A stretch of DNA of 64,000 nt, from the IMG/VR virus record IMGVR_UViG_3300034061_006011; one strand, 5' to 3'. This DNA is from a virus. Lineage: Duplodnaviria > Caudoviricetes. Below the pieces are notes generated by a model. It saw only the letters and a program-made list of their open reading frames with translations, was not told the origin of the DNA and searched no databases. Position numbers and translations under genes: made by a program. Of this stretch, positions 14,533-56,384 are shown piece by piece. The first letter of the stretch is position 1; every line of letters begins with the position of its first letter.

Positions 14533-15348
14533 TTAATCCTCTATTACTTTTCCTCGACAATATTCCAATGATTTTTTTATTTCTTTTTCTATTTTGGTAA
14601 AAGCAATATTAACTGTTTTCTCAACAATATTTTCAGTATGGTTAATAGGAGAATTTTCATTACAAAACTTAGTCAATTTTTTGAAATCAGGACGTTTTAA
14701 TTTACCACCACCATATAAATAAGATACAAAAATTTCATATGCCAATTCGTCGGCATCTTGTACAGTTTTATTTTCCACAGTTGATTTTGCAGATGCAAAA
14801 TTAAACAATAAAGGCAATATTTTGTTTGGTTTAAATTCTACTGAAGGAAATTCATTGTTGTCATAGAATTTATTCACTGTTGTAAAAGGTATTTTGCCAA
14901 ATGTCAGATGTGTAACTAAATTGAAAACAGCCATCTTAATTGTATCTTTAGAAGACGAATTTCCCATTTCAAACACTGCATGACCCATATTGTGCAAAAT
15001 CATCCAAGGAGTTAGTAAATCTCCTTGTGATGATTTCTTAAGAAAAACTATATCCTCTTTTGGAATTTTATCAAAAAAGTATTTTTGAATATCTATGTCA
15101 TCTCTGTTATATTCACCAAAGTATATATGAAAATTAAAGCCTTTGACTCTTGCCAATACTGTGTCTAAAACAGATATTATGCCACCACGAAGCTTGCTAC
15201 GACTACTAATAACAAGCGGTCTTTTATACATGCCAGAAATATATTCAGTATCTTTTTCATTAAGAGATGGCTTAAATTCATCTCCATGTGGCATCGTAAA
15301 GCCACCATGACTCGATAAAGCTTCCAAAAATTGATAAAAACTTTTCAT
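14533..15348 (-). CDS. tagged protein (MKSFYQFLEA) with degenerate zincin motif; paralog of 26550-27713
   Basis: LTPWMILHNMGHAV...ELAYEIF. Confidence 0.65.
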   Translation of the reverse strand: MKSFYQFLEALSSHGGFTMPHGDEFKPSLNEKDTEYISGMYKRPLVISSRSKLRGGIISVLDTVLARVKGFNFHIYFGEYNRDDIDIQKYFFDKIPKEDIVFLKKSSQGDLLTPWMILHNMGHAVFEMGNSSSKDTIKMAVFNLVTHLTFGKIPFTTVNKFYDNNEFPSVEFKPNKILPLLFNFASAKSTVENKTVQDADELAYEIFVSYLYGGGKLKRPDFKKLTKFCNENSPINHTENIVEKTVNIAFTKIEKEIKKSLEYCRGKVIED

Positions 15349-15430
15349 TGTACCTATATAGAAAAACCCCGGCGAAATATTTTAACTTCTCTACTAGCAA
15401 TTTATTTAAAATTATCACTAAATATACACT

Positions 15431-15997
15431 ATGAATACTTTCAAACAATTTCTAGAATCTAGAAACGATGAACTAAGAAAAGCATTAGAAGACATTACAG
15501 CCAATTTCGCTAAATATGGATCGCCAGTTCCTCCACAACCAATCGATACAGATCCAGATCTCCTAAAATGGGAACCAGAACTATTAGAATTTAACCCAGA
15601 ATTAGTTAAATGGACTCACGAACTACTCCATAAACGCAAAGATCAAAACCAAACAGCAAAAGAATTTAAAAAATGGATCGAAATGAGAACCAGAGCTGAA
15701 ATGAGAACCAAAGCATCAGCACCACCTCCTCAACCAAAACCACCATTGCCACCAATAGAAGACTTTATCAAAGAATATAAGCCAAAAAGACATCCCGAAA
15801 AAGACTACGGAGGATATAACGATGGAATGAAATACACTGTAGTATCTACATCAAAATCTGTACCACATGAATTAAGACAACTAATAGCAAGATCACTAGG
15901 AGAAGAATGGTCATACCGTCAAGAAGTTGATAGAAAACCTTCAGATAACAAAAGAAGACACTATTACCTCGTTTATTGCCCAAGCCTAAGCTTGTAA
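15431..15997 (+). CDS. tagged Pro-rich hypothetical protein (MNTFKQFLES)
   Basis: CTAAATA upstream; tag motif. Confidence 0.65.
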   Translation: MNTFKQFLESRNDELRKALEDITANFAKYGSPVPPQPIDTDPDLLKWEPELLEFNPELVKWTHELLHKRKDQNQTAKEFKKWIEMRTRAEMRTKASAPPPQPKPPLPPIEDFIKEYKPKRHPEKDYGGYNDGMKYTVVSTSKSVPHELRQLIARSLGEEWSYRQEVDRKPSDNKRRHYYLVYCPSLSL

Positions 15998-16050
15998 AAT
16001 AAATTGACATAAATACTAATTTATAATATAAAAATAGAGGCAACTATGTC

Positions 16051-16551
16051 ATGATCGAAATCCCTATCACAAAAATCATGCTAGATTATGCAAACCACAA
16101 AGCATACCAACTCGGAAAATTAAAAAACTCAATAACAAAAGGCGAAGGTAATATCGCCGGATTCCTTGGCGAAATAGCAACAAAAATGTATCTAAACATA
16201 CCATATAACAAAGAAGAAAACTCTATACACTACGATATAATACACAACAACATAAGAATAGATGTTAAAACAAAAAGAACCACAACTACTATAAAACCAT
16301 ACTACGAAACCAGTATCGCCAACCTCAATACACTACAAGATTGTGACGATTATCTCTTTACAAGAGTGTATCAACCTACATATTCAAATATGCCAATATC
16401 AGTATTCCTGCTAGGTATCTACCCAAAAGACCTATACTTCGAAAAAGCTAGATTTCTATCCAAAGGAGATATTGACGGAGATAATAACTATATCGTAAAA
16501 AGCGACTGCTGGAATATGACTATTGATGAATTATACAATATTAACTACTAA
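16051..16551 (+). CDS. PD-(D/E)xK restriction-endonuclease-like protein
   Basis: GEIA...YDII...IDVKTK. Confidence 0.65.
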   Translation: MIEIPITKIMLDYANHKAYQLGKLKNSITKGEGNIAGFLGEIATKMYLNIPYNKEENSIHYDIIHNNIRIDVKTKRTTTTIKPYYETSIANLNTLQDCDDYLFTRVYQPTYSNMPISVFLLGIYPKDLYFEKARFLSKGDIDGDNNYIVKSDCWNMTIDELYNINY

Positions 16552-16613
16552 TCATCACACAAATCTTCATTAAAAATTCATCCCATTATGCCCCAAACTT
16601 CCATAAATATTAT

Positions 16614-16775
16614 ATGGAAGAAATTAATCATATAGTGAATCATATCACAACCATGAACCCAGCACTACCTAATTCTCAACAAGAATTAATTAGCACCCTG
16701 TCATTCATTGCTATCGTACCAGCAACCACCATGTTCATCCTCTACGCAATCTATGAAGAATATTTTCACTGCTAA
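16614..16775 (+). CDS. 53-aa small membrane protein, not in ORF track
   Basis: CATAAATA box 5 nt before ATG; C-terminal hydrophobic helix LSFIAIVPATTMFILYAIY. Confidence 0.5.
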   Translation: MEEINHIVNHITTMNPALPNSQQELISTLSFIAIVPATTMFILYAIYEEYFHC

Positions 16776-16787
16776 TCTAAATATACC

Positions 16788-17270
16788 ATGATCACCTTCA
16801 AACAATTTTTAGAAAATAAAGAAGACTTAGAACTACCACCAGAAATGGGAACCGCTCCAATACCAGATGGATGCGTAAGACTCTATCATCAAACAAATCC
16901 AGAAAATGTTCCATCAATTAAACAAAATGGCATAACTAAATCTTTGTCAACAGGAAAATCGCACCACGAACCATCTGTAATCTGGGCTGCAAGAAAACCA
17001 TTCTATAACATCAAATCAGACCTAGCTACTATCGAATTCTTCATCCCAGAAGAACAATTCTCACCACCAAGCTACGTCTTGGTAGACGTAATACCACCAG
17101 AACAAATTATAGGCATACACGAAAGATGGACCGACCTCGCAAGACACCTAATAAAAGATTACCCAGAACCAAATCAATCAAAAATAGACTTCTGGATGTC
17201 TATCGACGATAATTACAAAAAAGCTACCCAATTTTATGTCAACTATATGAAATCAATAGATAAATTGTAA
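16788..17270 (+). CDS. tagged ADP-ribosyltransferase-fold protein (MITFKQFLEN)
   Basis: LYHQT...SIKQNGI...IWAA pattern of ART/Tpt1-like NAD-binding domains. Confidence 0.6.
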   Translation: MITFKQFLENKEDLELPPEMGTAPIPDGCVRLYHQTNPENVPSIKQNGITKSLSTGKSHHEPSVIWAARKPFYNIKSDLATIEFFIPEEQFSPPSYVLVDVIPPEQIIGIHERWTDLARHLIKDYPEPNQSKIDFWMSIDDNYKKATQFYVNYMKSIDKL

Positions 17271-17289
17271 ATATTATCATAAATACAAC

Positions 17290-18603
17290 ATGACCACTTT
17301 CAAACAATGGCTGTTAACCGAAGCAATAATTGACAAAGAAGAATTTATTAAAGAAATTAATTCTACAGAACATTCTTATTTACACTTACAACTGTCCCCT
17401 AATGGAAAAATATTAATTACAAGCCCTCATATTGAAACCAATATAATAAAAATTGGGAAAAAATATAAGTCAATCGAAGCAACAGGATCATTACAACCAT
17501 TATCTAAAAATTTTGCTAATGTAATTAACACAATTAAAAAAATATATCCTGAAATATTAAACTATGTCGTTTCCGAGACAGGAGTTGCAGGATTTAGAAA
17601 TCCTTCAACAAAACATAGAACAGTACAATATTGGCTTGACCAACAAAGAACAGAACCAAAAGTAAATCTACCAAAATATTTTTATCACGGCACCTCTACA
17701 AACTTATATAATATGTTCATCAAAGAACAAGGATTGGTCCCAAGACAAATATCTGGAAGTTCTGGATCTTATGGTGCATCATCAGTCAGAGCCTTATCAA
17801 GAGGAATGTTTAATTATCTTACAATTCATCCTGATTATGCTACAAGAGAAGCAGCTACACAAGCAGCAAAAAATCATGGCGGTCTTCCACTCATATTAAA
17901 AATAAATTCATATGCAATAGATCCAACAAGACTTTTTCCCGATGAAGACGCAAGAGCAGAAACTTGGGAAGAATCCATGCACAAGATAGGAACAGTTGCC
18001 TATAAAGGCATTATCCAAAACTCAAGCATCATGCCATATGAAATTAGCAAAGATATCAATAGATTAAAATGGTTGCCTTATGAAGAAACACCAACAATGA
18101 ATCATCCCACATACGAAAAATTAATTACAACAAAAGAACATAGAAACAAAGATTCCGTATTCTTTGCACTTTATGATAAAGAAATAATTGATAGAAAAGG
18201 TAGCTTACTCAAACCAATAACCAGCGAAGAATTTAACGAAATAATAAAGAATGCAAAATGGGCAACTAATGCATGGTTAATTTGTGAATCAATAAACGAA
18301 GGTATATTGGAAAAGACAAGAAATTCTGTTATCAGCAGAAGTAATTTCGATAAAGAAGCACAAAAAATTGTACTTGATTTGTATAAGCATGATATTTTTG
18401 ATGAATATCTGCAAATGAAAAGCGAATACATTAGAATATATGATTACGCAATACAAGTAATAATAAAATATGCTAAATACCTTGGCAAAAATTCATGGAA
18501 AGAAATAGATCAAAAATTAAGAACTGTTTACTCAAGAAACAATAGAGATCAAAATGACCACTTATATTCCACTGAAGCTAAAGAAATATTAGGAATTAAA
18601 TAG
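17290..18603 (+). CDS. tagged ART-fold (Tpt1/KptA-like) protein (MTTFKQWLLTEA)
   Basis: FYHGTS...IKEQGLVPR...YLT...A..AA...GG.PLILKI. Confidence 0.7.
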   Translation: MTTFKQWLLTEAIIDKEEFIKEINSTEHSYLHLQLSPNGKILITSPHIETNIIKIGKKYKSIEATGSLQPLSKNFANVINTIKKIYPEILNYVVSETGVAGFRNPSTKHRTVQYWLDQQRTEPKVNLPKYFYHGTSTNLYNMFIKEQGLVPRQISGSSGSYGASSVRALSRGMFNYLTIHPDYATREAATQAAKNHGGLPLILKINSYAIDPTRLFPDEDARAETWEESMHKIGTVAYKGIIQNSSIMPYEISKDINRLKWLPYEETPTMNHPTYEKLITTKEHRNKDSVFFALYDKEIIDRKGSLLKPITSEEFNEIIKNAKWATNAWLICESINEGILEKTRNSVISRSNFDKEAQKIVLDLYKHDIFDEYLQMKSEYIRIYDYAIQVIIKYAKYLGKNSWKEIDQKLRTVYSRNNRDQNDHLYSTEAKEILGIK

Positions 18604-18715
18604 AAAGATTACCCGCAACTCCCGAAGAAGCAAGTATGTGGAAACTCAAAACTCTTAACCACCCATTCCATTTCAAATTCATTTCAGAAAATCCACAAGT
18701 AATCATAAATAATAC

Positions 18716-19867
18716 ATGACTAATTTTAAACAATGGCTACTTACAGAAGAAATTGACCGTAATGGCAAAACGGCAATAGTTTATCATAGAACCGACGAAA
18801 TTGAAAATGCACTTTCAATACTCCAATATGGATCTAAATCCGATTTTGATAAAGACCATCCTATGTTATCCGATTTTGATAAAGACAATCAACCGGGGCA
18901 GATGTTCTTCGTCTTTGATCTTGAAAGCACTATGGGAAAGGCAGAAACTTACGGAAATGCTATAATAAAATTCAAAGTCACTGATCTTGATAAATATCTT
19001 GTATTCCATACAAATATGGCTAAAAGAATTCATGGAGAGAATTACAAATTAAGTGATCAACTTAGAGAATTCAAAATTTCACAAAAATTCACACAAAATT
19101 ATCTTGATGATATAGACGAAAAACTAGTCACAAATCAATATAACCACATCACTGACGTTTATTCTTTTTTAATTGAAAACGAATGGATAAAAAGTAAAAT
19201 AAAAGGCGTTATTTATTGGGGATATGATGATGGATATTGCTTGCTTAAATTCCGTCCAGTAAATGACGGAACAATTACTATGATCGGATATGCAACCGAC
19301 CCACACAAAAATTATGAAAAAGATGGGATAATAAAAAGCAAAAATAGAATGAAAGATTTAGAAAAATCTCAAAATTGGACAACATCAACAGATATAGCCA
19401 AATTAAAATCTATTGATAAAACCCCATACGGACAAAGAGAAAAATATATTAAAATAAAAGAAAAAAATCCAACTGTCTTGGAAATAATCAAAAAACTAAA
19501 ACTAGAGAAAAATATTGAAAAAGATGAATTATTAAAAATAATGAATTCTGTTAAAAATAAAAACGCATTTGCAAAAATAATTATACAAAATAAAAAAGAA
19601 TTAACAGTTGATGATATTTCATTGTTAATGAAATATTCAACAGACTCATGGGAAATTTGTTCATTTATACTTAAGAATAGACCAGAATTGTCTGATTTTA
19701 TTTCTAGAGCTATGTTTCCTAAAACCTACAGACCAATGGACACTCAAACCAGCAAGGTATGGTCTGATTATACATCAGATCCAGACAGAAGACCAATAGA
19801 CACTAAAACCGGCGAAAGACCAGAATTGTCTGATTTTATTTCTAGAGCTATGCGTTCCCGTAAATAA
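18716..19867 (+). CDS. tagged PARP-like ART protein, paralog of 22638-23720 (MTNFKQWLLTEE)
   Basis: VYHRT; shares VTDLDKYLVFH.NMAK.IHG.NYK.SDQL with its paralog. Confidence 0.65.
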   Translation: MTNFKQWLLTEEIDRNGKTAIVYHRTDEIENALSILQYGSKSDFDKDHPMLSDFDKDNQPGQMFFVFDLESTMGKAETYGNAIIKFKVTDLDKYLVFHTNMAKRIHGENYKLSDQLREFKISQKFTQNYLDDIDEKLVTNQYNHITDVYSFLIENEWIKSKIKGVIYWGYDDGYCLLKFRPVNDGTITMIGYATDPHKNYEKDGIIKSKNRMKDLEKSQNWTTSTDIAKLKSIDKTPYGQREKYIKIKEKNPTVLEIIKKLKLEKNIEKDELLKIMNSVKNKNAFAKIIIQNKKELTVDDISLLMKYSTDSWEICSFILKNRPELSDFISRAMFPKTYRPMDTQTSKVWSDYTSDPDRRPIDTKTGERPELSDFISRAMRSRK

Positions 19868-19910
19868 AATTTATTTAACAATTAATTAAATATACACCAA
19901 TAAATACAAC

Positions 19911-20561
19911 ATGATCAACTTTTATCAATTCCTTGAATTTGCTAGAGAAATCATCCCAATAGGTACTGTTACTGACCCAAATGTCAGAAAATCGCTGGCA
20001 GGAAGAAGAATTAATTCCGCTGATGCGAAAAAATATTTGGATCAAGGTTTCGTTTATGTCTATAGATTTGAAGGATTCGCACCACGTCTCAGGAAGTATT
20101 CAAGAGGAGTTTGGTATTTTATAGGAGATGAAAATGATACTAAACTTGATCTGGGCAAATGCTTATTAGCATGGAATAAAGTACATGCACTTCACCTATT
20201 AGGATTTCCCAACAATTATATATTGTTTTATATTAATCCTGCAAATTTTTTACGACTTGCTGCTGACCAAAATTTAAACAATAGATATATAAATCAAGTA
20301 ATAAAATCACACTTTAATGAAAATGGACCTACCAAAGATTTCAATTCTTATGATAAATTAGATTTTCCCATGACTGGTATCGCAAAAAGTCAGGGATATG
20401 ATACTATCATGTTAGTTGCAGAAGGTGATTCCAAATCAGCAGAATTAATCGATCTTAGAACAGAAGTAACTCCTAAATCATTAGAAGATTATTTAAAAGA
20501 AATAGATGTAGATGAAGTTATGAAAGATTTAAAGAAAAAAAAGGGGAAAAAATCTACATGA
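19911..20561 (+). CDS. tagged protein, possible ART fold (MINFYQFLEF)
   Basis: VYVYRF start strand and GYDTI...E-LI end typical of ART-like domains; weak. Confidence 0.45.
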   Translation: MINFYQFLEFAREIIPIGTVTDPNVRKSLAGRRINSADAKKYLDQGFVYVYRFEGFAPRLRKYSRGVWYFIGDENDTKLDLGKCLLAWNKVHALHLLGFPNNYILFYINPANFLRLAADQNLNNRYINQVIKSHFNENGPTKDFNSYDKLDFPMTGIAKSQGYDTIMLVAEGDSKSAELIDLRTEVTPKSLEDYLKEIDVDEVMKDLKKKKGKKST

Positions 20562-20617
20562 TCACTTTCAAATAATCACCGTAACAACTCCAGTTAATTC
20601 TAATAAAATTAATATAA

Positions 20618-21301
20618 TTATTCTGAATCTGAGGAATAAGTGCCTATACCATAGTACTCTTTAATCTTATCAATCGCATCATTGTAAAGAATTGTTGCAT
20701 AAGAAGGACGAATATTCAATTCTGCCGCAATATCTTTATTCATTACATCCTCAGACCTGCGAGTCAAAATAATCTTCTGCCTTGGACTCAAATTGGGAAC
20801 CCTTAACAAATCCTCTAATCCCATCTTTTCAGACGATGGATCATCAGCAAATGAACTAGGCTCATGAATAGTACCAACTGTGTTAAAACTCACATTTCCT
20901 TTCTCACTCTTCCAATTATTACGCCTTATAATGTCCACAACAGATGCTCTAATCATGTTTGTAATCAAACCACCAATTAAATTGTAATTCAATTTTCTAT
21001 TTCTTATTTTTTTTTCAACCGTATTGTGAACCCTCAGCAAAGTCCTGTTGATAATGTCCTCTTCATCAACAATGTTTCTTATAACCATTCTACGCTGATA
21101 AGGCAAAAGACTATTCCTAAAACAATTTCTTATATTATTGTCCAATCTATCATAAAACTTTTCCTTCTTACCCAAATTATCAGAATACCATAAAAATAAA
21201 TTCTCCAAATTCCTCTTACACTTAAAAATTATCTCGGCTGCTTCTGGATCTACAGATTCATGAAAATCTCTATTAATAACATATTCAAAAAATGTTTTCA
21301 T
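20618..21301 (-). CDS. tagged ECF-like sigma factor (MKTFFEYV...HES)
   Basis: region-2-like EDIINRTLLRV...IRASVVDIIRR; region-4 HTH LSPRQKIIL...KDIAAELNI. Confidence 0.7.
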   Translation of the reverse strand: MKTFFEYVINRDFHESVDPEAAEIIFKCKRNLENLFLWYSDNLGKKEKFYDRLDNNIRNCFRNSLLPYQRRMVIRNIVDEEDIINRTLLRVHNTVEKKIRNRKLNYNLIGGLITNMIRASVVDIIRRNNWKSEKGNVSFNTVGTIHEPSSFADDPSSEKMGLEDLLRVPNLSPRQKIILTRRSEDVMNKDIAAELNIRPSYATILYNDAIDKIKEYYGIGTYSSDSE

Positions 21302-21381
21302 AATAAACTATATATTCCACTAAACAAAAAAATCACACCACATCTCTATAAATTAAATCCACAAATAAGCATAAATACTAC

Positions 21382-21762
21382 ATGATCACTTTCAAACAAT
21401 TCCTAGAATCCTACAGAATGGAAGACCAAACCTTCTCCGATAACAACGGCACCTACTCCGTACCACAAATAGTCAACTACGCAACAGAAAACAAAACAAT
21501 AAAAGAAATGCCATTAGAACCCCTACTACATAACCTAGAACCATCCCCACACGAAGAAGGTGATGAACTACCCGGTCATCCAGAATTTATCAAAAGAACT
21601 GAACTAACTGACCTCAAATACCCAATCATTATCGTCAAATACCCAGACGGTCTCTTTATCGCTGACGGTGTCCATAGACTAGCAAAAGCTCACTCCCTAA
21701 ACCAACAAACTATCAAAGCTTATGTCCTAGACCAAAATGAATTAGAACAATTCAAAATGTAA
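21382..21762 (+). CDS. tagged ParB/Sulfiredoxin-like domain protein (MITFKQFLES)
   Basis: YPIIIV...IADGVHRLAKA. Confidence 0.7.
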   Translation: MITFKQFLESYRMEDQTFSDNNGTYSVPQIVNYATENKTIKEMPLEPLLHNLEPSPHEEGDELPGHPEFIKRTELTDLKYPIIIVKYPDGLFIADGVHRLAKAHSLNQQTIKAYVLDQNELEQFKM

Positions 21763-21768
21763 CATTCT

Positions 21769-22563
21769 TCAAGACTCAATCCAATCCTGTCCATTATGAA
21801 CTAAAATTTTAGTCACAGGTAAAGAACTTTCTCCTGTGTACTTCAAAGCCATAGGATTCTTTCCATAATTATTCTGGAAAAACCAAGATTCCAGTTTTTT
21901 ATGCAATTCTGGATTCCGATCCTGATGTCCATAATAAAAAGGAGCTATATTAGATGCTGCTCCTGCACTGTAATAAGGGTTATCATTCAACAAAGGATCA
22001 CGAACACTTCCTATTCTACCGGGAAATTTACCATACAAACTTCTGGCTACAGGATTCTTCTTGATAGTCGAAAATGGAATTGGCTCGGCATCAATACCAG
22101 TCAACTTTTCTCCAACTTCATCCTTTGACAAATATTCTTTTGTCTTGTCTGTTAAATTAACATCTCCCAACTTGTTCAGCTTTCCAACTCTTTTAGAAGC
22201 ATAAGTAAGAATGTCCTTCGCATGATTCTCAATGTCCAAATCCCATTCACCAAAATCAATATTTGGAACATCTATTACAACAACTATAGGATTACCCTCT
22301 AAAGAACCCTTCAAACCATACAATTCTCTGTTCATACGAGCCAAAGCATGAGTTTTTGCGCTTTCATCCGATGTCCAAAGAAATAAACCACCTCCCTGAC
22401 CATGACCGTATCCCGAAGACCTAGCACCATCCCTCTTAAATGAATTCAATACCTCATCGTTCTTTCCAGAACTAGTTCCATGATAAAACCTGAAAGGACC
22501 ATTAATAACAATATCATGTGAATAACCTTCATCATGTCGAAGCCACTCTTTGAAATTATCCAT
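21769..22563 (-). CDS. tagged ART-fold protein (MDNFKEWL...DE)
   Basis: FYHGTS...GHGQGGGLFLWT. Confidence 0.65.
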   Translation of the reverse strand: MDNFKEWLRHDEGYSHDIVINGPFRFYHGTSSGKNDEVLNSFKRDGARSSGYGHGQGGGLFLWTSDESAKTHALARMNRELYGLKGSLEGNPIVVVIDVPNIDFGEWDLDIENHAKDILTYASKRVGKLNKLGDVNLTDKTKEYLSKDEVGEKLTGIDAEPIPFSTIKKNPVARSLYGKFPGRIGSVRDPLLNDNPYYSAGAASNIAPFYYGHQDRNPELHKKLESWFFQNNYGKNPMALKYTGESSLPVTKILVHNGQDWIES

Positions 22564-22637
22564 AATGTTTATATATAAAAAATCCAGAAAAATATCAACC
22601 CTCTACACAAATTAAATCAACATACATAAATATAACC

Positions 22638-23720
22638 ATGAACTTTAAACAATGGCTCATCAACGAAGAAATTTATCCCAATAACACCGCTACGGTTTAT
22701 CATAGGACTGAACACGCTAGCAATATTGAAAGAATTCTACAATCTGGATACAAAACCGGTGGTGGTCAAATGTATGGTAATGGTCTTTACACTACCATCT
22801 CACTAGAAAGCCAATTTAAAAGTTATATGAGCATATATGGTAATTATGTTATCAAGTTTCATGTCACCGATCTTGATAAATATCTTGTATTCCACCCCAA
22901 TATGGCTAAAAAAATTCATGGTCAAAATTACAAAATCAGTGATCAATTGAAAAATTTTAATTTAGCAGGAAGCTTTACAGAAGATAAACTTAGACAATAC
23001 GATGAAGCACAAGAAAAAACCGGAACTGTTAATGGTAATAATGCAGTTAAATTTTGTAGAGAAAATATTGGGATACTGCATACAATAAAAGGCATTATTT
23101 ATTATGGAACAAATGATGGCTATTGTTTAGTAAAATATAAACCAGTGAACGATAATACAATAAAAATGCTTGGTTACGCAGAAGCACAAGTTGAAGATAT
23201 CAATAAAATGAACGAACTGTACGCAAATAAAGGATGGAATACATCAACAGATAAAGCTAACATCAAAGATATACAAGATTTAGAACCAGATCAAAGAGAA
23301 AAATACGCAACAATTACTCCAAATAATTTGAAATCTGTATCAGAAATTGTAACCCTTATAAAGGATGAAAAATCTAATTTTGAAGAAATATTCGAATACA
23401 TAAAGAGAAATAAATTAATAGATCAAAAATACAAAAATACTATTGTAAGACTTATATTAAAATATAAAAAAGAAATATCCGTGGAACAATTGCTAGAACT
23501 AGTAAAATACAAAAAAGAAATCTCCATAGAAGAATTAATTGAACTAATAAATTACAAAAAAGAAATCTCCATTAAACAATTACTAGAACTAATGAAATAT
23601 ACAAACATGTCCACATCAGAAAGAGAAAAATTTATTGCAACTTACTTACCAGAAAAAGTAAATTCAATTAAACAATATGTTAACGATCCATCAAACTTTA
23701 CTTCAACACATGATGATTAA
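22638..23720 (+). CDS. tagged PARP-like ADP-ribosyltransferase (MNFKQWLINEE)
   Basis: VYHRT...ILQSGY...MYGNGLYTT; three 14-aa C-terminal repeats KYKKEIS.E.L.EL. Confidence 0.7.
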   Translation: MNFKQWLINEEIYPNNTATVYHRTEHASNIERILQSGYKTGGGQMYGNGLYTTISLESQFKSYMSIYGNYVIKFHVTDLDKYLVFHPNMAKKIHGQNYKISDQLKNFNLAGSFTEDKLRQYDEAQEKTGTVNGNNAVKFCRENIGILHTIKGIIYYGTNDGYCLVKYKPVNDNTIKMLGYAEAQVEDINKMNELYANKGWNTSTDKANIKDIQDLEPDQREKYATITPNNLKSVSEIVTLIKDEKSNFEEIFEYIKRNKLIDQKYKNTIVRLILKYKKEISVEQLLELVKYKKEISIEELIELINYKKEISIKQLLELMKYTNMSTSEREKFIATYLPEKVNSIKQYVNDPSNFTSTHDD

Positions 23721-23766
23721 TATCAACCCTCTACACAAATTAAATCAACATACATAAATACACATC

Positions 23767-24048
23767 ATGAAACTTAAAGATAAAGCTACCATCAAAACAA
23801 ATTTTCCAGAAGCTGACTTTTGGATCGTTCGCAGAGGATCAGAATCAGACGTTGGTAAACCTACCAAAAAATTTAGCGAATATCACATAGGAATTAAAGT
23901 TACATCTGATGACCTATTACCAGATTATCTCTACTACGCAATGACATATCTCTACAACCAAGGATACTATAAACCATTAGCCACAGGAATGTCAAGCTTG
24001 GTAAACATACAAGTTAAAGATGTTAAAAATATTAAAATGGGCGAATAA
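23767..24048 (+). CDS. small protein resembling a type I R-M HsdS target-recognition fragment
   Basis: ADFWIVRRGS..VGKP...IGIKV...LPDYLYY...G...NI pattern; recognised from memory. Confidence 0.55.
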   Translation: MKLKDKATIKTNFPEADFWIVRRGSESDVGKPTKKFSEYHIGIKVTSDDLLPDYLYYAMTYLYNQGYYKPLATGMSSLVNIQVKDVKNIKMGE

Positions 24049-24099
24049 TAAAACCACACTACCTCTACACAAATTAAATCAACATACATAAATATAACC

Positions 24100-24693
24100 A
24101 TGAACTTTAAAGAATTTATTTATAATGAAACATCAACAGCTAGCCTAGACCTCGTTGGCTATAACTGCCGTCAAATAGAACCAGACACAGATCCACACTT
24201 CGGTCAAGTACATGTCTCTGGTCCCAGCGAAGAAGACATGAGTGCTGAAGTATTCGTCAAAAGATATATCGAAAATATCATAGAAGAAAAGGACTACTAC
24301 GAATTCATAAAAGAATATGGAGACGATCCATATGAGAAAAATCAATCACTCACAACAGAACGCCAACAATGGATGGTAAAAGCTGCCAATTTTCTTAACA
24401 AAAAAGGATACAGAATGCTATTCTGCGGCGATAAACCAGAAAAAATCTATGGAGAAAATTGCTACGCAGTCTATATCGATAAAACAAAAATTATTAATAT
24501 CACACGTCGTGACTATTACCCAATGACAGACGAAATAGACGAAATCACAGAAGAAACTATCATCACTTGGAAAATACCATACAACCCAATCCTCGTAAAT
24601 ATCAAAACATTACCAACAAAATTACCAAAACCAATTCCACTCATCAGACCAAGAAGACGATCAGATCGAAATGGAGATCACGAATTCCTATAA
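24100..24693 (+). CDS. tagged hypothetical protein (MNFKEFIYNE)
   Basis: late cassette upstream, tag motif. Confidence 0.65.
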   Translation: MNFKEFIYNETSTASLDLVGYNCRQIEPDTDPHFGQVHVSGPSEEDMSAEVFVKRYIENIIEEKDYYEFIKEYGDDPYEKNQSLTTERQQWMVKAANFLNKKGYRMLFCGDKPEKIYGENCYAVYIDKTKIINITRRDYYPMTDEIDEITEETIITWKIPYNPILVNIKTLPTKLPKPIPLIRPRRRSDRNGDHEFL

Positions 24694-24773
24694 CCCAATA
24701 CCAGAAATATTACACACCACTTCTACACAAATTAAATCAACATACATAAATACACCTGAGCAAATCATAACAC

Positions 24774-25682
24774 CTAATAAATCCGTTCTCCTCTGACGGA
24801 CTCACTCGTCCTCTGCTTCCATTGGTCCCTTAAAACATCTCTTCGCATCATAGCTGCCTTGGAAAACGGCTCAACAGCCAAATGTGCAGCCGGAAGGTCA
24901 AATGCCTGCTGCGGCGTTTCTCCCACCAATAAGTCCTTCACAGTCATAGTTGTTACTGATTTCCCACCCTTATCAAATGTATTTACAAAAATAGTTGTAT
25001 TCATAGTAGCAGGCTGATACAGGAGAGCTTCATCATCACTAGTTGACCTGACACGCTGATTCTTGGCACAAATAGCCTTAAGGCAATTTATCAATTTCTC
25101 CTTGTCATACGAATACATGTCGAAATTGTTGGCACCCCTCACAAGTATCATACCAGCATCCTTCATCGCCTCTACTTCAAGCTGCTCTTCTCCATGACCC
25201 ATAGCTATCTTCTGCAAAATTGATGAAGCCGATCCCAAAGCCTCATCCAACCCTTTAGCCATTATTTGCTCAATATAATTTTCACATTCTTTATCATTAT
25301 TATACACATCAGAGGATATCATGTCGCTAATTACCGAATACATCAAACCAAAATTTTCATGATTGATGTATGTCTTATCGGAAGGAGGAAAAAAGAAACC
25401 GGAAGAATGAACATGACCACGCCTGACATCTCTCTCTTCTCTCTCAAGCTTTTCCTTGTTAACACAAGGATTGTTCCTAAAATTAGTATAAAAATCAAAT
25501 AAAGCTTTTTTGTATTTCGTGACATAATATTGCGATATTAAATCTGTATGTCCTCTGGATCTGTCAGATCTTATGGCATTCTGCAACTTACCATTTGGAT
25601 AATATATCCATTCGCCCTTGATGCAGGACTCTCCTTCACTCTCATTTTCTCTCATCAAAACCCAATCCATAAAACGAATCAT
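24774..25682 (-). CDS. tagged hypothetical protein (MIRFMDWVLMRENE)
   Basis: 302-aa ORF, GGAG RBS. Confidence 0.65.
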   Translation of the reverse strand: MIRFMDWVLMRENESEGESCIKGEWIYYPNGKLQNAIRSDRSRGHTDLISQYYVTKYKKALFDFYTNFRNNPCVNKEKLEREERDVRRGHVHSSGFFFPPSDKTYINHENFGLMYSVISDMISSDVYNNDKECENYIEQIMAKGLDEALGSASSILQKIAMGHGEEQLEVEAMKDAGMILVRGANNFDMYSYDKEKLINCLKAICAKNQRVRSTSDDEALLYQPATMNTTIFVNTFDKGGKSVTTMTVKDLLVGETPQQAFDLPAAHLAVEPFSKAAMMRRDVLRDQWKQRTSESVRGERIY

Positions 25683-25731
25683 ATAATCTCCAATATTTAA
25701 TTACCCATGTATATTTATTCCAAATAATTAA

Positions 25732-25941
25732 AAACCTCACCCAATAGAACAACTAAAAGCCAAAAGAATTAAAATAACCATCAACCCCGGAGATTGGGTC
25801 TGCCTCACAAGAAATTATGCAAAAGAACACGGAGAAGGAAGCCTGAATAACGTATTCAAAATAATATCCAAAACAGTACCAGCTAAACACCTATTCACTA
25901 ACGGTGACATGCTACAAGAATTCGGTTACGACCCTTCTTAA
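25732..25941 (+). pseudogene. 5'-truncated remnant of an ART-like domain
   Basis: 69 open codons with no start: ...INPGDWVCLTRNYAKEHGE...KTVPAKHLFTNGDMLQEFGYDPS*. Confidence 0.65.
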
Positions 25942-25948
25942 TACACAT

Positions 25949-26545
25949 TTATACCGCACGAATATTTTGTAAAAATTTCTTCTTTTCCAAAGGACTCGAC
26001 TCCATTGTCAAATTCTCTGGAATAGATGGATAACCCTTCGGAACATATTCCCTTTCATATATATCTCTCCTCATCCATTGATTTATTTTTACCGAAACAT
26101 ATGAAGGAAATAAACCCTTGATGGCAAAAATATCATACGCATCTCTGCGACCTTCAGGATTCGTTATTATTCCAGTAACAGGATTGGCAGTTTTTGTTTT
26201 TGACGGACTCCATATCAGATAATCAGGATTATTATTTTTGATAAACTCACCAATTGCATAAAAAACAGCACCAATCACCTTAATACCAACTCCACGCCTC
26301 TCATCCTTAGAATTGTTACTTCCCCTTTTAAACTCAACTTCATAACTATTCGATTTCAACTCCTCAAACCAGACCAAATAACACCACTTGGGACTACAAT
26401 CATCACCCTCAACATCGAAGTAAAACAAATCATTGCGACTCCACTCCGAATGCTTCGGCTTACCTCCATCAGTTCCCACAATAGTCATCTCGCTTAACCA
26501 CAAATAATCATCTGTTCGGTCCAAATATTCAAAAAATGTTTTCAT
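25949..26545 (-). CDS. tagged hypothetical protein (MKTFFEYLDR)
   Basis: start moved to 26545; 25 bp around the start identical to the sigma gene at 21301. Confidence 0.65.
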   Translation of the reverse strand: MKTFFEYLDRTDDYLWLSEMTIVGTDGGKPKHSEWSRNDLFYFDVEGDDCSPKWCYLVWFEELKSNSYEVEFKRGSNNSKDERRGVGIKVIGAVFYAIGEFIKNNNPDYLIWSPSKTKTANPVTGIITNPEGRRDAYDIFAIKGLFPSYVSVKINQWMRRDIYEREYVPKGYPSIPENLTMESSPLEKKKFLQNIRAV

Positions 26546-26549
26546 AATA

Positions 26550-27713
26550 TCAACTGCCCCTTCTATCCATAATAACTTCACCCCTGCAACCATCTATAAT
26601 TGAATGGTAAGAGGCTGCAATTTCATTAAATCTACTGTCCAAACCATCTAGCAAACTATCAAAATTTTCCGGTTCCCTACCTGCAAATAATTTTTGCAAC
26701 TTTACTTTGTAATTAGGATCAACTATCGGCAACCTTCCTCCTTGAGTTAACCAAAATACAAATATCTCCATTTGTAACTCCCCAGAATTTAAAGCCTGTT
26801 GTAAATCCATTTTCGATTTTATAAATTGACCCGATCTGGCTCCAGATATTATCTTAAACGCTTCCTTTATACTCCAAATACTAGGAAACAAAATTGTTAG
26901 AAAATCTATAGTTATATTCCCTATTCTTTTTTGTATTTCTTCATCAGTATACAAAGCTTCTTTATTACCATCTTTCAACACATCAATCCAACCTTGATAA
27001 AACTGTGGATACATCGGACTAACCAAAAAGTCTTTCAAAAGTTCCTTAACTAAATTTTCAGCTCTAACACAATCCTCCTGAATTTTATTCATGTATGTGT
27101 TGCCATAATCTGCTGTACGAGCAAGTGACCCTCTATCAAAAATACCATGTGCAAATGTGTGAAGAATCAACCAAGGAGTCAAAGGATCAGCAGCAGTACT
27201 CGTCTTCATGTAAACAATATCATTCTCACTTATGTTCATTCCGTCACGACCATAAAAATAATTTTTTAATTGATTGTAGTTGTCTTTAGTTAACTCTTTA
27301 CTTATGGTAAATCCTGACTTAATATCATCTTTAGGATAACCAAAATAGAAATGTATGTTCACAATACCAAGCTTCTCTAACTTCTTTTCAAGACCAGACA
27401 TTATCAATTTAAAATTTCTAGGATTCTCTATAATTTTCTTGTCACCACCTTTAAAATTGTGATCCCAACCAGAACTACCATATCGACTACCAACATCATC
27501 AGAATCAATATCCTTGTCTGGAAAATGCTTTTTATACTCATCACCATAATTTGAACCAAATTGAGAAGACCAACCATAATCATTAGACGGCGGCTGATTT
27601 TGCAAACCCTGTGAAAGATTATGCTGAACCGGATAACCTCCAACTGACCCTAAAACTTCATCAATTGTAAATTTATTGTCATTAATCAAAAACCACTCTT
27701 TAAATCTTTTCAT
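26550..27713 (-). CDS. tagged protein with degenerate zincin motif (MKRFKEWFL)
   Basis: PLTPWLILHTFAHGI...ELQMEIF. Confidence 0.65.
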   Translation of the reverse strand: MKRFKEWFLINDNKFTIDEVLGSVGGYPVQHNLSQGLQNQPPSNDYGWSSQFGSNYGDEYKKHFPDKDIDSDDVGSRYGSSGWDHNFKGGDKKIIENPRNFKLIMSGLEKKLEKLGIVNIHFYFGYPKDDIKSGFTISKELTKDNYNQLKNYFYGRDGMNISENDIVYMKTSTAADPLTPWLILHTFAHGIFDRGSLARTADYGNTYMNKIQEDCVRAENLVKELLKDFLVSPMYPQFYQGWIDVLKDGNKEALYTDEEIQKRIGNITIDFLTILFPSIWSIKEAFKIISGARSGQFIKSKMDLQQALNSGELQMEIFVFWLTQGGRLPIVDPNYKVKLQKLFAGREPENFDSLLDGLDSRFNEIAASYHSIIDGCRGEVIMDRRGS

Positions 27714-28339: not shown

Positions 28340-28524
28340 TGAATGCCGATTGATCCCCACACTACTATTATCGGCATTCAACCAACCAGACTTGAACCAA
28401 CCTAAAGATTCTTCCTAACCACATTTTAGTATCCTAAGTTTGTCCGCATTGTCTCAATTGAAATAACAATAAAAAAACCCCCTTCTCCGGGTGGAGAAGG
28501 GGGCTGTTGATTATTGTTAGCCTA

Positions 28525-29190
28525 TCATTCAGATAACAGAATCATTTCTAATTCCCCCCCACGGATTCCCATTGAAGGGAATCCCTTGGCTGAATAAATT
28601 CTTTCGATTGCGTCTTCGGACGTTAGCCCGAAGACGTTTTGCAATTGTTGGAACAGGCACTTCAAATGGCGATCCAGTGCCAACTTTGTTATCACAATAA
28701 CAAAGTTTTCAATGGTGCCGTTAACACGGCACGCCGTCCCAGTGGGACGGTTGATTTCAAAATTAACCGTCCCAAGACGGTTCACATCCCACTTATAACG
28801 CCCACTGGCGGATTGATCCGCCGGTGTTGGTAGTGGGTGTTGACAATTACAATAAGTATCCTGATCCGCATTGAAATAGTCCGCCCAATCAATGGGCGTT
28901 CCAATGCACGCCCAAAGATGCCCAAACGAATGGGCGATTTTACGGGACACCCGCAATTGTGCGGGTGTCATTTTTGAAGTCTCAAAACTGAATTCATCGG
29001 GATACCGAAGTGGCTCGCCACTCCAGTGGCGTGAACAGTCTCGCTTGCCCCGTAGGGCAAGCGATGCGATTTCAGCGGCATTGGGTGCCGCAGCGTTCTT
29101 CCTGATCCAGTGGTTGAGATACGCAACACGACCGGTTGCGGTTGCGGTTGCGGTTGCGGTTGCGGTGGCGGTGGCGGTTGAAATGGTCAT
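28525..29190 (-). CDS. hypothetical protein with N-terminal (TA)n microsatellite
   Basis: start moved to 29190; 8 x CGGT(T/G)G at 29133-29180. Confidence 0.7.
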   Translation of the reverse strand: MTISTATATATATATATATGRVAYLNHWIRKNAAAPNAAEIASLALRGKRDCSRHWSGEPLRYPDEFSFETSKMTPAQLRVSRKIAHSFGHLWACIGTPIDWADYFNADQDTYCNCQHPLPTPADQSASGRYKWDVNRLGTVNFEINRPTGTACRVNGTIENFVIVITKLALDRHLKCLFQQLQNVFGLTSEDAIERIYSAKGFPSMGIRGGELEMILLSE

Positions 29191-29552
29191 GTTCGATACT
29201 CTCATGCCCGTTTCAGGTACGGGTGGACCTTGGCTAAGGTGAACCACAACATGCGGTTCACCTACGACTATCTTAACATCATCCCCAACTAGGTCAAGAG
29301 AAAATCCACCCAAGAGAAAAGATTCCTCCCATCCACATTTTAGTATCCTAGTGTTGTCTCAATTGTCCAGCAATAGGATTCCTCCCATCCACATTTTAGT
29401 ATCCTAGTGTTGTCCACATTGTCCAGCAATAGGATTCCTCCCATCCACATTTTAGTATCCTAGTGTTGTCTCAATTGTATCAATTCAGATAACAATAAAA
29501 AAACCCCCTTGACTTGTCTGTCAAGGGGGTGGTTGATTAAGTTAGCCGATTG

Positions 29553-29759
29553 TTATTTAATTTTGTCGAGCCACATATCGATGATTCCAGAAACCAGTTT
29601 CCTTTCCTTTGGTTTCATTCTTAGAAACATTTTTAGATGTTCAACGATTTTCTCGAATCGTTCCAGCTCATTTTTGATTCTTTTAAGTTGTTTGTCTACC
29701 CTCTTTGGGCGAGAAACCTTTCCATCAACAATGCGGCTTGATTCGTTTTCAGTTCTCAT
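29553..29759 (-). CDS. small coiled-coil hypothetical protein
   Basis: own promoter, leader and terminator. Confidence 0.65.
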   Translation of the reverse strand: MRTENESSRIVDGKVSRPKRVDKQLKRIKNELERFEKIVEHLKMFLRMKPKERKLVSGIIDMWLDKIK

Positions 29760-30006
29760 GGTATTCGATCCATACGGTTTTCAGGGGAACCGGGAACCTA
29801 GAAGCGGCACACTATGCGCCGCCTCATGCATTCATTCTACCATCATCCCCAACTAGGTCAAGGGAAAAGAAAAGATTCCTCCCATACACATTTTAGTATC
29901 CTAGTGTTGTCTCAATTGTCCAGCACAATATCAAAATTGAAATAACAATAAAAAAACCCCCTTGACTTGTCTGTCAAGGGGGCTGTAGTTTTGTTATCTG
30001 ATATTG

Positions 30007-30273
30007 TTATTTTGTGAACGCCTCCAGTATTGCCTTCATGGCAACGTCTCTTATTTCACTCTTAGGCAAACGCATGATTGCCCGCATACAAGAGATTTTA
30101 TTCTTGTAGCTTTTGAGTAGGTCATCCAATGGCGTTTTCTCCCTTGCGTGGGGTATTTCCGGCAGATTAAACCGCTGTGGCTTATCGCACTTAATGTATT
30201 CCTTGTATTCCTTTTCCCGCTTGTCGGCGGTTGGAGAAACGGTTGCGGCAACGGCGTTACGCTCAATTTTCAT
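30007..30273 (-). CDS. hypothetical protein
   Basis: own promoter and leader shared with 29553-29759. Confidence 0.65.
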   Translation of the reverse strand: MKIERNAVAATVSPTADKREKEYKEYIKCDKPQRFNLPEIPHAREKTPLDDLLKSYKNKISCMRAIMRLPKSEIRDVAMKAILEAFTK

Positions 30274-30585
30274 AGCAGTCGATCCAACCGGTTTTCAGGG
30301 GAACCGGGAACCTAGAAACGGCACACTATGCGCCGCCTCATGAAGTCATTCTAACAACGTCCCCAACTAGGTCAAGAGAAAATCCACCCAAGAGAAAAGA
30401 TTCCTCCCATCCACATTTTAGTATCCTAAAGTTGTCCGTATTGTATCTTAAGAGGAATTCCTCCCATCCACATTTTAGTATCCTAAAGTTGTCCGTATTG
30501 TATCGTAATAGGAATTCCTTCCATCCACATTTTAGTATCCTAAAGTTGTCTTAATTATCTAGAACGATATCAAAAAAGGGTGTAA

Positions 30586-31785
30586 TAGTGTTAGCCGATA
30601 ACGAAATAGCGGAGATAACGAAATGGCGGGAATAGTGTTAGCCGATAACGAAATAGCGAAGATAACGAAATGAAGGTAATAGTGTTAGCAGATAACGAAA
30701 TTAAAGATATGAAAACAAAAAAACCCCGCAAGCCTTTCGACTTGCGGGGCAGATTGACCGGCAGGGGTTGTCATGTTGTCGTGTGTGATGTAATCTTGAT
30801 CACATTATTGGAAACACCTTGATAAACCGGAGACATCTTACCCGCATGAGTGAACTCAATTCCGTAATTGGCACCGACACGGAATTCGGTTTCCGTTCCG
30901 GGTTCATAAGCCACGAAACCGATATTCGTTGCCTCATGAACAAAGTTCACGATGCGAGTTGGTTTCCCATATCCCCAGCGTACTGGTGAAACCCCTACGC
31001 ATATCACTTCAATATTGTAATTACCCGGCTCAATCGCTTGAGTGATTGGCGTTGGCAATTTAATAGCTGCAATTGGTGCAAGTGGTGCAATTGGTGCAAT
31101 TGGTGCCACTGGTGGCACTTGCGCCACTGGTGCCACTGGTGGCACTTGCGCCACTTGCGCCAACGCTGCCCTAAGCGTTGCCAATTGTTCGGGGTTGAAA
31201 CCCCGAACAAGATCAAGCATCGACTGGCTTGCATCGATTGCCACTGGTGCGGAAACGGACTTGGCGTTCTTGCGGGGTGCCATGGTCATAAACTCCATGC
31301 CAGTTTCAGGATACTGGCGGAACCGGTTAAGGTGAACCACAACATGCGGTTCACCTACAAGCATCATAGGGAAACCGTTTCACTAGGTCAAGCGAATTCC
31401 CAAGAAAGTTTCCTTACAAATTCTTAAGATCCGCGGACCCCCCCCCCTCCCATCCACATTTTAGTATCCTAAAGTTGTCTCAATTGTCCAGTCTGGTAAC
31501 AAAAAAGGAATTCCTCCCATCCACATTTTAGTATCCTAAAGTTGTCTCAATTGTTTCTAAAAAAAACAAAATTAAATTATAATATTTAATTTCATAATTA
31601 AAATAGTTATCAGATAACGAAAGTGGCAATAATGTTAGCCGATAACGGAATAGGGGAGATAACGGAAACGGTAATAGTGTTAGCGGATAACGTAAGTGGG
31701 AATAGTGTTAGCGGATAACGGAAGTGGGAATAGTGTTAGCGAATAACGGAATAGGGGAGATAACGAAATTACCGATATGAAAACA
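30586..31785. repeat. two blocks of GTTAGCNGATAACG / GATAACG repeats (30586-30712, 31605-31785)
   Basis: about 5 and 7 GATAACG copies; both blocks adjoin the same terminator. Confidence 0.9.
30771..31289 (-). CDS. hypothetical protein with AP-rich linker and beta-rich C-terminal domain
   Basis: start after GGAG at 31289; AQVPPVAPV repeats. Confidence 0.7.
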   Translation of the reverse strand: MTMAPRKNAKSVSAPVAIDASQSMLDLVRGFNPEQLATLRAALAQVAQVPPVAPVAQVPPVAPIAPIAPLAPIAAIKLPTPITQAIEPGNYNIEVICVGVSPVRWGYGKPTRIVNFVHEATNIGFVAYEPGTETEFRVGANYGIEFTHAGKMSPVYQGVSNNVIKITSHTTT

Positions 31786-31841
31786 AAAAAACCCCGCAAG
31801 CCTTTCGACTTGCGGGGCAGGATTGCCGATATGTTATTCGA

Positions 31842-32099
31842 TTATGCACCAAGCCAGATGATCTTGGTGTTCTTATTGGCAAGATGACGGGTGAGCAGGA
31901 AGACGAGATCAGTGTCTTCCTTTTTTGAAATCATCTTGATTACGTCACCGTTTCGATCAACGGTCAATTGAACCGAAGTTCCTTCAATCTGGTTCATTCC
32001 AAGGCTTGTCACCTTGGAAGTGGACAACGCTTCAACAATTGCGTTATCTACTTTTGCGTCGATGAGAACAGCAATCGAAACCTGAATATTGTTATTCAC
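31842..32099 (-). CDS. hypothetical protein
   Basis: own promoter, leader and terminator. Confidence 0.6.
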   Translation of the reverse strand: MNNNIQVSIAVLIDAKVDNAIVEALSTSKVTSLGMNQIEGTSVQLTVDRNGDVIKMISKKEDTDLVFLLTRHLANKNTKIIWLGA

Positions 32100-55002: not shown

Positions 55003-55557
55003 TTATACCGAAAGATCCCTAAAGACTGCTATTAGTTTTAACAAGGATTCACTTTCTAATTGAATCCTCATATCATTACTGTTGGGTCCATTATACTCAA
55101 GTTCCTTGTCATAGTCAAGGAACATTTTTTTGGATTCTGGCAAATAGATTCTTTCTTGCAGAGATAATTTACTTAATGCTTCCCGAAATGTTTCAATTTC
55201 CCGATCATTTCTCTTTTTATCTACTATAAACTGTTCAGGAGATTGGTCATCTTCAACTACAATAGTTGTTTCAAAGTCAAGAACATTTCTATGATATCGT
55301 TTCTTATGCATCCATAAAGATCGGGCACCTTTCATTTGCCAAGCAGCATGACCGGAGAAAGATCCTTTAGTTGGATCATAAGTGGATGCAGCAACGACCA
55401 AGCTCATCATAAGCTCTTGCCGATATCCTTCTTCATCACGAAAATAAACACCTTTTGGAGTTCTTTTAAGGAACCATTCTACCAATGCAATATTATCTTC
55501 TACCAACTTCCTTTGAGTATTAGTCAAAGGAGAAACTTCTTTTTTTTGTTTAGCCAT
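55003..55557 (-). CDS. sigma70-family region-2 protein
   Basis: LVEDNIALV...ELMMSLVVAASTYDPTKGSFSGHA. Confidence 0.75.
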   Translation of the reverse strand: MAKQKKEVSPLTNTQRKLVEDNIALVEWFLKRTPKGVYFRDEEGYRQELMMSLVVAASTYDPTKGSFSGHAAWQMKGARSLWMHKKRYHRNVLDFETTIVVEDDQSPEQFIVDKKRNDREIETFREALSKLSLQERIYLPESKKMFLDYDKELEYNGPNSNDMRIQLESESLLKLIAVFRDLSV

Positions 55558-55727: not shown

Positions 55728-56384
55728 TTATTCTTCAAATTGGTCCCTTAGCCTTTCTACGCATTTTTTTGTTATCTGTTGAATGCGTTGTCGTGTAACT
55801 CCAAGTTCATCAGCAATACTTTGAAAACTTTTTTCATTAAAATAATGGTCTATGACTATTTGTCTGTGATGAATAGGAAGAACATTTAGGTTAATATAAA
55901 ACACAACTTTCTCTTCTTGTGGTTGCCTTAAAGTTGAATGTTTTGATTTGCTAATTACTTTATCGTTAATTGTAATTAGTTGATAATTATCTTTCCTTCT
56001 TCTATTTTTTACAAAATAGATTTCATAAATCCTTCTAAAGAAAGATGTATAGAAGTATGTCATGAACAAGACTTCACCGGGGATGAAGTATTTCTGGCAG
56101 CTACAATAGACATATAAAGCAATATTTTTAGCTTCCTCTAAATCTAATTTAATTTTATATTTTTCTTTGAATTTGCTGGCTAATTTTCTGGAGAAGTATG
56201 TTGTCATTTTGATAATATCTTCTTTAGGAAATTCAATATTTTTAATATCATTGTCTATATTTCTGCGATTTGCTTCATTTTGAGCAATACGCAGAGAATA
56301 CTTTTTATTTTCTCTTCCTATCTTTATGTCTACACAATCATTTGTTGTATAGACATATCCATCCTTGGTTTTAGTGTACCACAT
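55728..56384 (-). CDS. sigma70-family-like protein with region-4 HTH
   Basis: LP...RQIVIDHYFNEKSFQSIADELGVTRQRIQQI. Confidence 0.75.
   Translation of the reverse strand: MWYTKTKDGYVYTTNDCVDIKIGRENKKYSLRIAQNEANRRNIDNDIKNIEFPKEDIIKMTTYFSRKLASKFKEKYKIKLDLEEAKNIALYVYCSCQKYFIPGEVLFMTYFYTSFFRRIYEIYFVKNRRRKDNYQLITINDKVISKSKHSTLRQPQEEKVVFYINLNVLPIHHRQIVIDHYFNEKSFQSIADELGVTRQRIQQITKKCVERLRDQFEE

Follow-up and report, generated by a model that had tools for sequence, protein, structure and literature searches.

A small ECF-type sigma gene with a T4-like targeting leader in a giant T4-like phage of lakes

A giant T4-like lake phage carries a small gene for an ECF-type sigma factor whose product begins with a leader resembling the capsid-targeting sequence (CTS) of phage T4. 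The gene was analysed in a stretch of viral DNA of 64,000 nt, referred to here as the window, where the ORF occupies positions 20618..21301 of the minus strand (ATG at 21301, TAA at 20618-20620) and encodes a protein of 227 aa. The most economical reading, and in our view a reasonable one whose probability falls just short of even, is that this is a divergent group-IV (ECF-type) sigma factor with a T4-type capsid-targeting leader, which would be packaged, trimmed after Glu15 and injected. The tagged ORF described in the initial annotation is real: 20 ORFs of the window share its leader, which is also kept in the homologs.

Sequence and fold of the sigma-like protein

The protein, encoded throughout on the minus strand, starts with the 15-residue leader MKTFFEYVINRDFHE (codons 1-15; 21257..21301), which is followed by Ser16 and then directly by a sigma2-like domain (residues about 30-135; 20897..21214) delimited by the domain model and a structural scan of the PDB. 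Next come a disordered linker (residues 136-158; 20828..20896), recognized by pLDDT and alignment and containing the conserved motif G-T-x-x-E-P-x-S-x-x-x-D-P, and a sigma4-like helix-turn-helix (HTH) domain (residues 159-219; 20645..20827) seen in structure matches and sub-threshold Pfam hits. There is neither a region 1.1 nor a sigma3 domain, and catalytic RNA polymerase domains are absent, all recognizable domains being sigma-like. Because sigma2 begins near residue 30, the leader abuts an ECF body of normal size, and the architecture is therefore modular, a tag plus a sigma factor.

Among sequence profiles, the sigma70-ECF model TIGR02937 matched residues 69-216 of the protein to model positions 18-164 of 165 (E=3e-6), and phrog_1740, annotated as 'RNA polymerase sigma factor', matched with E=1.4e-7. 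Pfam returned only sub-threshold matches, located at the C-terminal HTH (GerE, E=4e-4; Sigma70_r4_2, E=0.12), and no match to Sigma70_r2. All of these profile scores lie below the curated cut-offs (for example, 27.0 bits vs 42.9 for TIGR02937 and 12.5 vs 25.7 for Sigma70_r4_2). All language-model neighbours that have a Pfam family belong to sigma-70 families. An HMM of the tagged-sigma family found no sigma factor among the PDB sequences, and hhalign aligned the family profile with E. coli RpoE and with T4 gp55, each taken as a single sequence, over a short region-4 stretch or not at all. The protein has conserved patterns that fit a region-4 HTH and ECF region 2, in the latter case D79-x-E81-x-x-I-N-x-T-L and G-L-x-x-x-M-I-R-x-x-V-x-D-x-x-R, and its region 2 is divergent in that EDIINRTLLRVH replaces the usual AEDxxQExF pattern. 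Residues D123, R126, I191, A192 and E194, in the sigma2 D-x-x-R helix and the sigma4 HTH, are invariant in the family, as are G143, E147, P148, S150, D154 and P155 of the linker.

The ECF-like region 2 and region-4 HTH that the initial annotation had read from the sequence are borne out by these remote profiles, by AF2 and Foldseek and by the structural scan, and the predicted fold is sigma-like. The full AF2 model (pLDDT 66) consists of two helical domains joined by a linker of about 25 aa, with pLDDT below 50 across residues 129-158. In a Foldseek search with the whole model, the top 50 PDB matches were all sigma factors, with E-values that were weak because the two domains are freely oriented, and every named match among the viral proteins of BFVD was a sigma factor of the phage ECF/RpoE-like type. 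Residues 17-135 folded alone gave a pLDDT of 88.7 and a pTM of 0.80. Foldseek with the isolated N-terminal domain found generic helical bundles, a result that is not diagnostic. In an exhaustive structural scan (VIA) of 48,161 PDB chains, ranks 1-8 for this domain were all sigma2 domains: the best match was region 2 of E. coli sigmaE (2mao), followed by ShbA, SigW, T4 gp55, a sigmaE-like chain, AlgU, RpoE and an ECF sigma factor of M. tuberculosis. The sigmaE match had Z 7.7 and an rmsd of 2.8 A over 92 of 106 residues, that to T4 gp55 (7d7d_F) had Z 7.0 over 102 residues, and the sigma4-like domain matched region 4 of SigD, SigF, sigmaE and sigmaA with Z 7-8 and rmsd 1.6-4 A, Z values of 7-8 being modest for helical domains. 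The protein has the ECF-type architecture (sigma2, linker, sigma4) and forms a divergent family of its own. Judging from the models, the fold evidence for its identity as a sigma factor is stronger than the sequence evidence, which is remote.

The divergent region 2 (EDIINRTLLRVH) and the scores under the family cut-offs would also suit a packaged and injected protein with a role other than that of a promoter-specificity subunit. It might be a sigma-fold decoy on core RNA polymerase, a titrator of a host anti-sigma factor or defence sensor, or an HTH DNA-binding protein, and the early promoters of the phage, described below, require no special sigma factor. However, both DNA-recognition modules, the sigma2 D-x-x-R helix and the sigma4 HTH, are strongly conserved, which argues that promoter contact has been retained, and we regard such a role as quite improbable.

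An adjacent cognate anti-sigma factor is a common, albeit not universal, companion of ECF sigma factors. The neighbours of the tagged sigma gene differ at every orthologous locus (the window, L002, L010 and L015), so that there is no conserved anti-sigma partner. In the window, the sigma gene is separated by an intergenic region (21302..21381) from a divergent tagged gene (21382-21762, plus strand), whose 126-aa product has a ParB/sulfiredoxin-like DGVHR motif (phrog_33277, E=5e-5).

Within lake metagenomes, the protein has 19 close homologs at 62-98% identity; two more distant ones, P0020 (40% identity) and P0021 (36%), were all that 1.8 billion cluster representatives yielded in addition when searched exhaustively. 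The stretch of DNA with the sigma gene was found in lake-water metagenomes of at least 18 studies. A tblastn search of 50,697 GenBank phage records gave no match for the tagged sigma factor or for the 184-aa sigma-like protein discussed below, and no homolog of the tagged sigma factor turned up when LR756511.1 (595 kb), the closest relative among deposited sequences, was searched with an HMM. Positions 20896..21183, inside the sigma gene, are matched with 1 mismatch by a 288-nt contig of a metatranscriptome library from a lake. This is a hint that the gene is transcribed, although a weak one, because DNA carry-over is possible.

The leader as a peptide signal

The T4 proteins IPII and IPIII begin with MKTYQEFIAE (PMC8442874), a sequence that we also read directly from NC_000866. 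These 10 residues are enough to bring foreign proteins into heads, with positions 4 and 7 responsible for targeting and positions 8 and 10 controlling the cut by gp21 (PMC9026906). The leader of the sigma factor, starting MKTFFEYV, has M1, K2, T3 and E6 in common with that of T4, along with aromatic residues at positions 4 (F4; Y4 in T4) and 7 (Y7; F7 in T4) and an aliphatic residue at position 8. The Glu of the T4 leader stands at position 10, whereas the motif of the sigma factor is followed by no Glu before position 15; its leader has 15 residues rather than the 10 of T4. The S77-type proteases all cut after Glu, and the propeptides of T4 have 10-20 residues (PMC5694885). The prohead-protease site predicted in the sigma factor is F13-H14-E15/S16, with a hydrophobic residue at P3; on sequence grounds, a 15-residue leader ending in F-H-E fits a T4-type propeptide.

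The T4-type head module itself is present in this phage lineage. It was located just outside the window, in near-identical contigs (L007-L009) that encode an AAA protein identical to the one at positions 8-1213 of the window, followed in T4 order by Portal_T4, Peptidase_S77, a 293-aa coiled scaffold-like protein and Gp23. The major capsid protein (MCP) has an F-N-E site in its propeptide region and is 76% identical to that of the 595-kb uncultured huge phage LR756511.1 and about 30% identical to those of cyanophage and Xanthomonas jumbo T4-likes. The window itself encodes a T4-type large terminase. The portal gene in one of these contigs (L007, 12906-15419) contains an intein (Pfam Intein_splicing inside Portal_T4).

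The leader pattern M-x(1,2)-F-x-[DEQKNS]-[FWY] occurs in 20 of the 407 ATG-initiated ORFs of at least 60 aa in the window, always at the true start of the ORF, and the bodies of the tagged proteins are unrelated to one another. When all six frames are counted, there are 23 matches vs 5.9 +/- 2.2 in shuffled sequences, and the 20-fold recurrence of the leader in the window is not due to chance. In the tagged ORFs, the second codon positions of the leader are conserved and the third ones vary, while the classes of residues are kept, which indicates selection on the peptide. We also considered the leader as a nucleotide-level signal for the translation of leaderless mRNAs; this was ruled out by the varying third codon positions and by the ordinary Shine-Dalgarno leaders found in several tagged genes. 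One further tagged ORF encodes a NUDIX hydrolase (9168-9593, minus strand; Pfam E=4.5e-18) that starts with MKSFQDFL and has no Glu nearby downstream; going by its sequence, it may be a cargo protein that is targeted but not cleaved.

Within the sigma family, M1, F4, E6, Y7 and E15 are invariant across 13 homologs, down to 36% identity, which makes 5 invariant columns of the 15 in the leader vs 30 of the 212 in the remainder of the alignment. By this measure, the leader is among the best-conserved stretches of the family down to that level of identity. The Glu is preceded by a hydrophobic residue and one further residue in every homolog (FHE/S, LNE/A, LNE/V). Two homologs that seemed to lack the tag turned out to be gene calls from a second in-frame ATG, and inspection of L015 at the DNA level showed the tag in place, behind a Shine-Dalgarno sequence. 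We saw no ortholog without the leader among 21 family members.

The start of the sigma gene bears traces of exchange at the DNA level. An unrelated ORF of 198 aa (25949-26545, minus strand) has the same first seven residues (MKTFFEY) and 24-25 start-spanning nucleotides identical to those of the sigma gene, which suggests from the sequence that a start cassette was recently exchanged between the two; elsewhere in the same gene cluster, an identical block of about 49 bp lies upstream of both 22638 and 24100. The leader might thus be functionless in the sigma factor, having hitch-hiked on a mobile cassette of promoter plus first codons that recombines among these genes. Such an origin would account for both identical stretches. 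It fits poorly with the retention of the leader in orthologs at 36-40% identity, which have different codons and different upstream DNA, and with an invariant Glu site amid drifting third codon positions, and we find it very improbable.

The tagged island and the promoter-like classes of the window

The sigma gene is one of 14 long ORFs, on both strands, that share the leader and make up an island at positions 14533..27713. The orthologous island of the distant relative L010, whose sigma factor is 40% identical, is likewise tagged and has the same neighbouring genes, those for GH130, methyltransferase and NUDIX proteins. Ten proteins of the island were scanned against Pfam and PHROG, with almost no matches. 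Most island genes (15419-24102; also 57373) lack a Shine-Dalgarno sequence and have, 3-8 nt before the ATG, a box that reads TAAATA or, in minus-strand genes, TATATA. These boxes resemble T4-type late promoters, and their position suggests late mRNAs that would be leaderless or nearly so. The box of the sigma gene, AATATATAG at 21308-21316 (minus strand), 6 nt upstream of the ATG, is the weaker TATATA variant only; the upstream region 21302..21381 contains neither a Shine-Dalgarno sequence nor a consensus early promoter. In its setting, with no early promoter and a TATATA box adjoining the ATG, the sigma gene resembles the other tagged genes; it may be expressed together with them, perhaps while proheads assemble. 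The upstream regions of the sigma orthologs are not conserved, and a conserved, possibly autoregulatory promoter was looked for there and not found.

The early-promoter region, 35000-57400 on the minus strand, has a different organization. It contains about 30 near-consensus sigma70-type promoters (TTGACA-N17-TACAAT, in many cases with a TG immediately upstream of the -10 element), each followed by a short GC hairpin and then by a small ORF led by a Shine-Dalgarno sequence. The tag is absent from all ORFs behind these roughly 30 promoters. Two untagged sigma-like genes lie inside this region. The first (55003..55557, minus strand; 184 aa) has mainly a sigma2 signature (TIGR02937, E=4e-6) and is preceded by a perfect TTGACA-N17-TATAAT promoter, and the second (55728..56384, minus strand) has a clear region 4 (TIGR02937, E=3.8e-11; Pfam Sigma70_r4, E=4.2e-11). 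BLASTP comparison with T4 gp55 showed no similarity for either, and the 184-aa ORF is therefore not called a gp55 ortholog. Thus, the two untagged sigma-like genes are in the early region, whereas the tagged one is outside it, in the tagged island, and this partition supports packaging of the tagged sigma factor.

The same three genes could be taken as a cascade, in which the tagged protein would be a working sigma factor inside the cell that produces it, acting as a middle or late member, and the N-terminal motif would not be for delivery. The motif might then be a pro-sequence whose removal by the prohead protease serves as an on/off switch, a stability or degradation signal, or a cause of incidental capture in the head. 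Phage sigma factors normally act in the cycle that makes them (jumbo-phage reviews PMC7824862, PMC13282480), and three sigma-like genes in one window suit a cascade. Some island genes also have what may be a bipartite promoter, CTCTAY-N15-24-TAAATA (5 matches vs 0.26 expected, three of the five belonging to one repeated 49-bp cassette), which a two-domain sigma factor could read. Against this stands the fact that the other two sigma-like genes, unlike this one, both lack the tag and both fall within the early-promoter region. Furthermore, about 19 unrelated tagged proteins of the window would have no reason to share a regulatory device specific to a sigma factor, and the motif matches the targeting positions of T4, beyond a mere protease site (PMC9026906). 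We therefore consider a role confined to the producing cell unlikely, though less so than either of the alternatives discussed above.

No cognate promoter of the tagged sigma factor was identified. A separate repeat family is found at 28400-34800, mostly on the minus strand, where the 18-mer TAGGATACTAAAATGTGG occurs 17 times (14 exact) vs 0.07 expected. It forms the core of a 45-nt unit that ends in GGGAGGAAT, and some copies are arranged in tandem at a spacing of 56, 57 or 67 nt. The segment has a GC content of 0.42-0.50 vs about 0.33 nearby and contains few long ORFs. The spacing does not fit sigma70; the units could be a middle-type or ECF-type promoter class, arrays of binding sites, or small RNA units. 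No tRNA genes or Rfam families were found in the window.

Proposed function and relation to known systems

If the sigma factor is indeed packaged and injected, it would be produced together with the other tagged proteins and not from an early promoter. Its leader, through the aromatic residues 4 and 7 and the aliphatic residue 8, would bring it into the scaffolding core of the prohead, and an S77 (gp21-type) prohead protease would trim the leader after Glu15 (F-H-E/S). The mature protein of about 212 aa would remain in the head with the DNA and be ejected into the next host. There it would bind the host core RNA polymerase at time zero and either steer it to a further class of phage promoters or compete with the host sigma factors.

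The initial annotation had proposed that a sigma factor delivered from the virion could redirect host RNA polymerase ahead of any expression of phage genes. The part of this reading that concerns a sigma-like protein with a T4-CTS-like tag has held up, whereas the redirection is weakened, because the host holoenzyme should use the roughly 30 near-consensus sigma70-type promoters unaided. An injected sigma factor is therefore not obviously needed to start the infection, and its job would be narrower than, or different from, 'starting' it: it might recognize promoters of a special class, be a competitor of host sigma factors, or act as a decoy.

Like this sigma factor, the T4 proteins IPI, IPII, IPIII and Alt have an N-terminal leader in which residues 4 and 7 are aromatic and residue 8 is aliphatic, and which an S77 protease cuts after Glu, a cut that in the present case is predicted. 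The head cargo of T4 comprises diverse proteins that are encoded at plastic loci and ejected with the DNA, and Alt acts on the host RNA polymerase upon entry (PMC9026906, PMC3012670, PMC8442874). However, no sigma-family member is known among the T4 cargo, whereas here the putative cargo, as read from the genes alone, is a sigma-family protein, and tagged genes are far more numerous than in T4, with 20 in the 64-kb window alone.

Phage-encoded sigma factors such as gp28 and gp34 of SPO1 and gp36 of phiEco32 are well known. The tagged protein resembles T4 gp55 and the ECF-like sigma factors of many phages in being a small sigma-70-family protein for the host core RNA polymerase; its sigma2 domain aligns structurally with that of gp55, while sequence similarity is undetectable. 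The known phage sigma factors differ in that they are made after infection and act in the same cycle, and none has been described with a capsid-targeting leader. Overviews of jumbo phages mention sigma factors in those of the gp23 type, not packaged ones (PMC7824862, PMC13282480). The N4 virion RNA polymerase (vRNAP) and the virion RNA polymerases of phiKZ and AR9 share with the proposed system the concept of transcription machinery that is preloaded in the capsid and acts before phage protein synthesis (PMC7598289, PMC13434306). These are, however, catalytic polymerases independent of the host RNA polymerase, whereas the tagged protein would be a specificity subunit only, for which the host core enzyme is still needed, and those phages differ from this one in lineage and packaging route.

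In the Twort-like phage fRuSau02, sigma and anti-sigma factors were detected by mass spectrometry (MS) in a purified virion preparation, and the sigma factor was judged by the authors to have co-purified because subunits of the host RNA polymerase were present as well (PMC5618024); unlike the tagged sigma factor, it involves no targeting signal. This is the sole report of a phage sigma factor in virion MS that we found, and the novelty of a packaged sigma factor, as the initial annotation had it, stands after a check of the literature: the papers searched, most subscription journals lying outside that search, contained no sigma factor described as deliberately packaged or as bearing a capsid-targeting signal.

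We tentatively propose, at a probability well below even, that this is the first virion-delivered sigma factor: widespread huge T4-like phages of fresh waters would load their own ECF-type sigma factor, among dozens of tagged proteins, and reprogram the host core RNA polymerase at the moment of DNA entry. Known takeovers of transcription by phages rely on factors made after entry or on the injection of a complete RNA polymerase. If the proposal is true, an injected sigma factor would be a third route, in which the specificity subunit is delivered and the host enzyme is borrowed, a cheaper option than packaging an entire RNA polymerase. The 'capsid targeting sequence' of T4 would then no longer be confined to a few small anti-restriction proteins but would serve as a general system for cargo, regulators as well as enzymes, in the huge phages commonly found in lakes.
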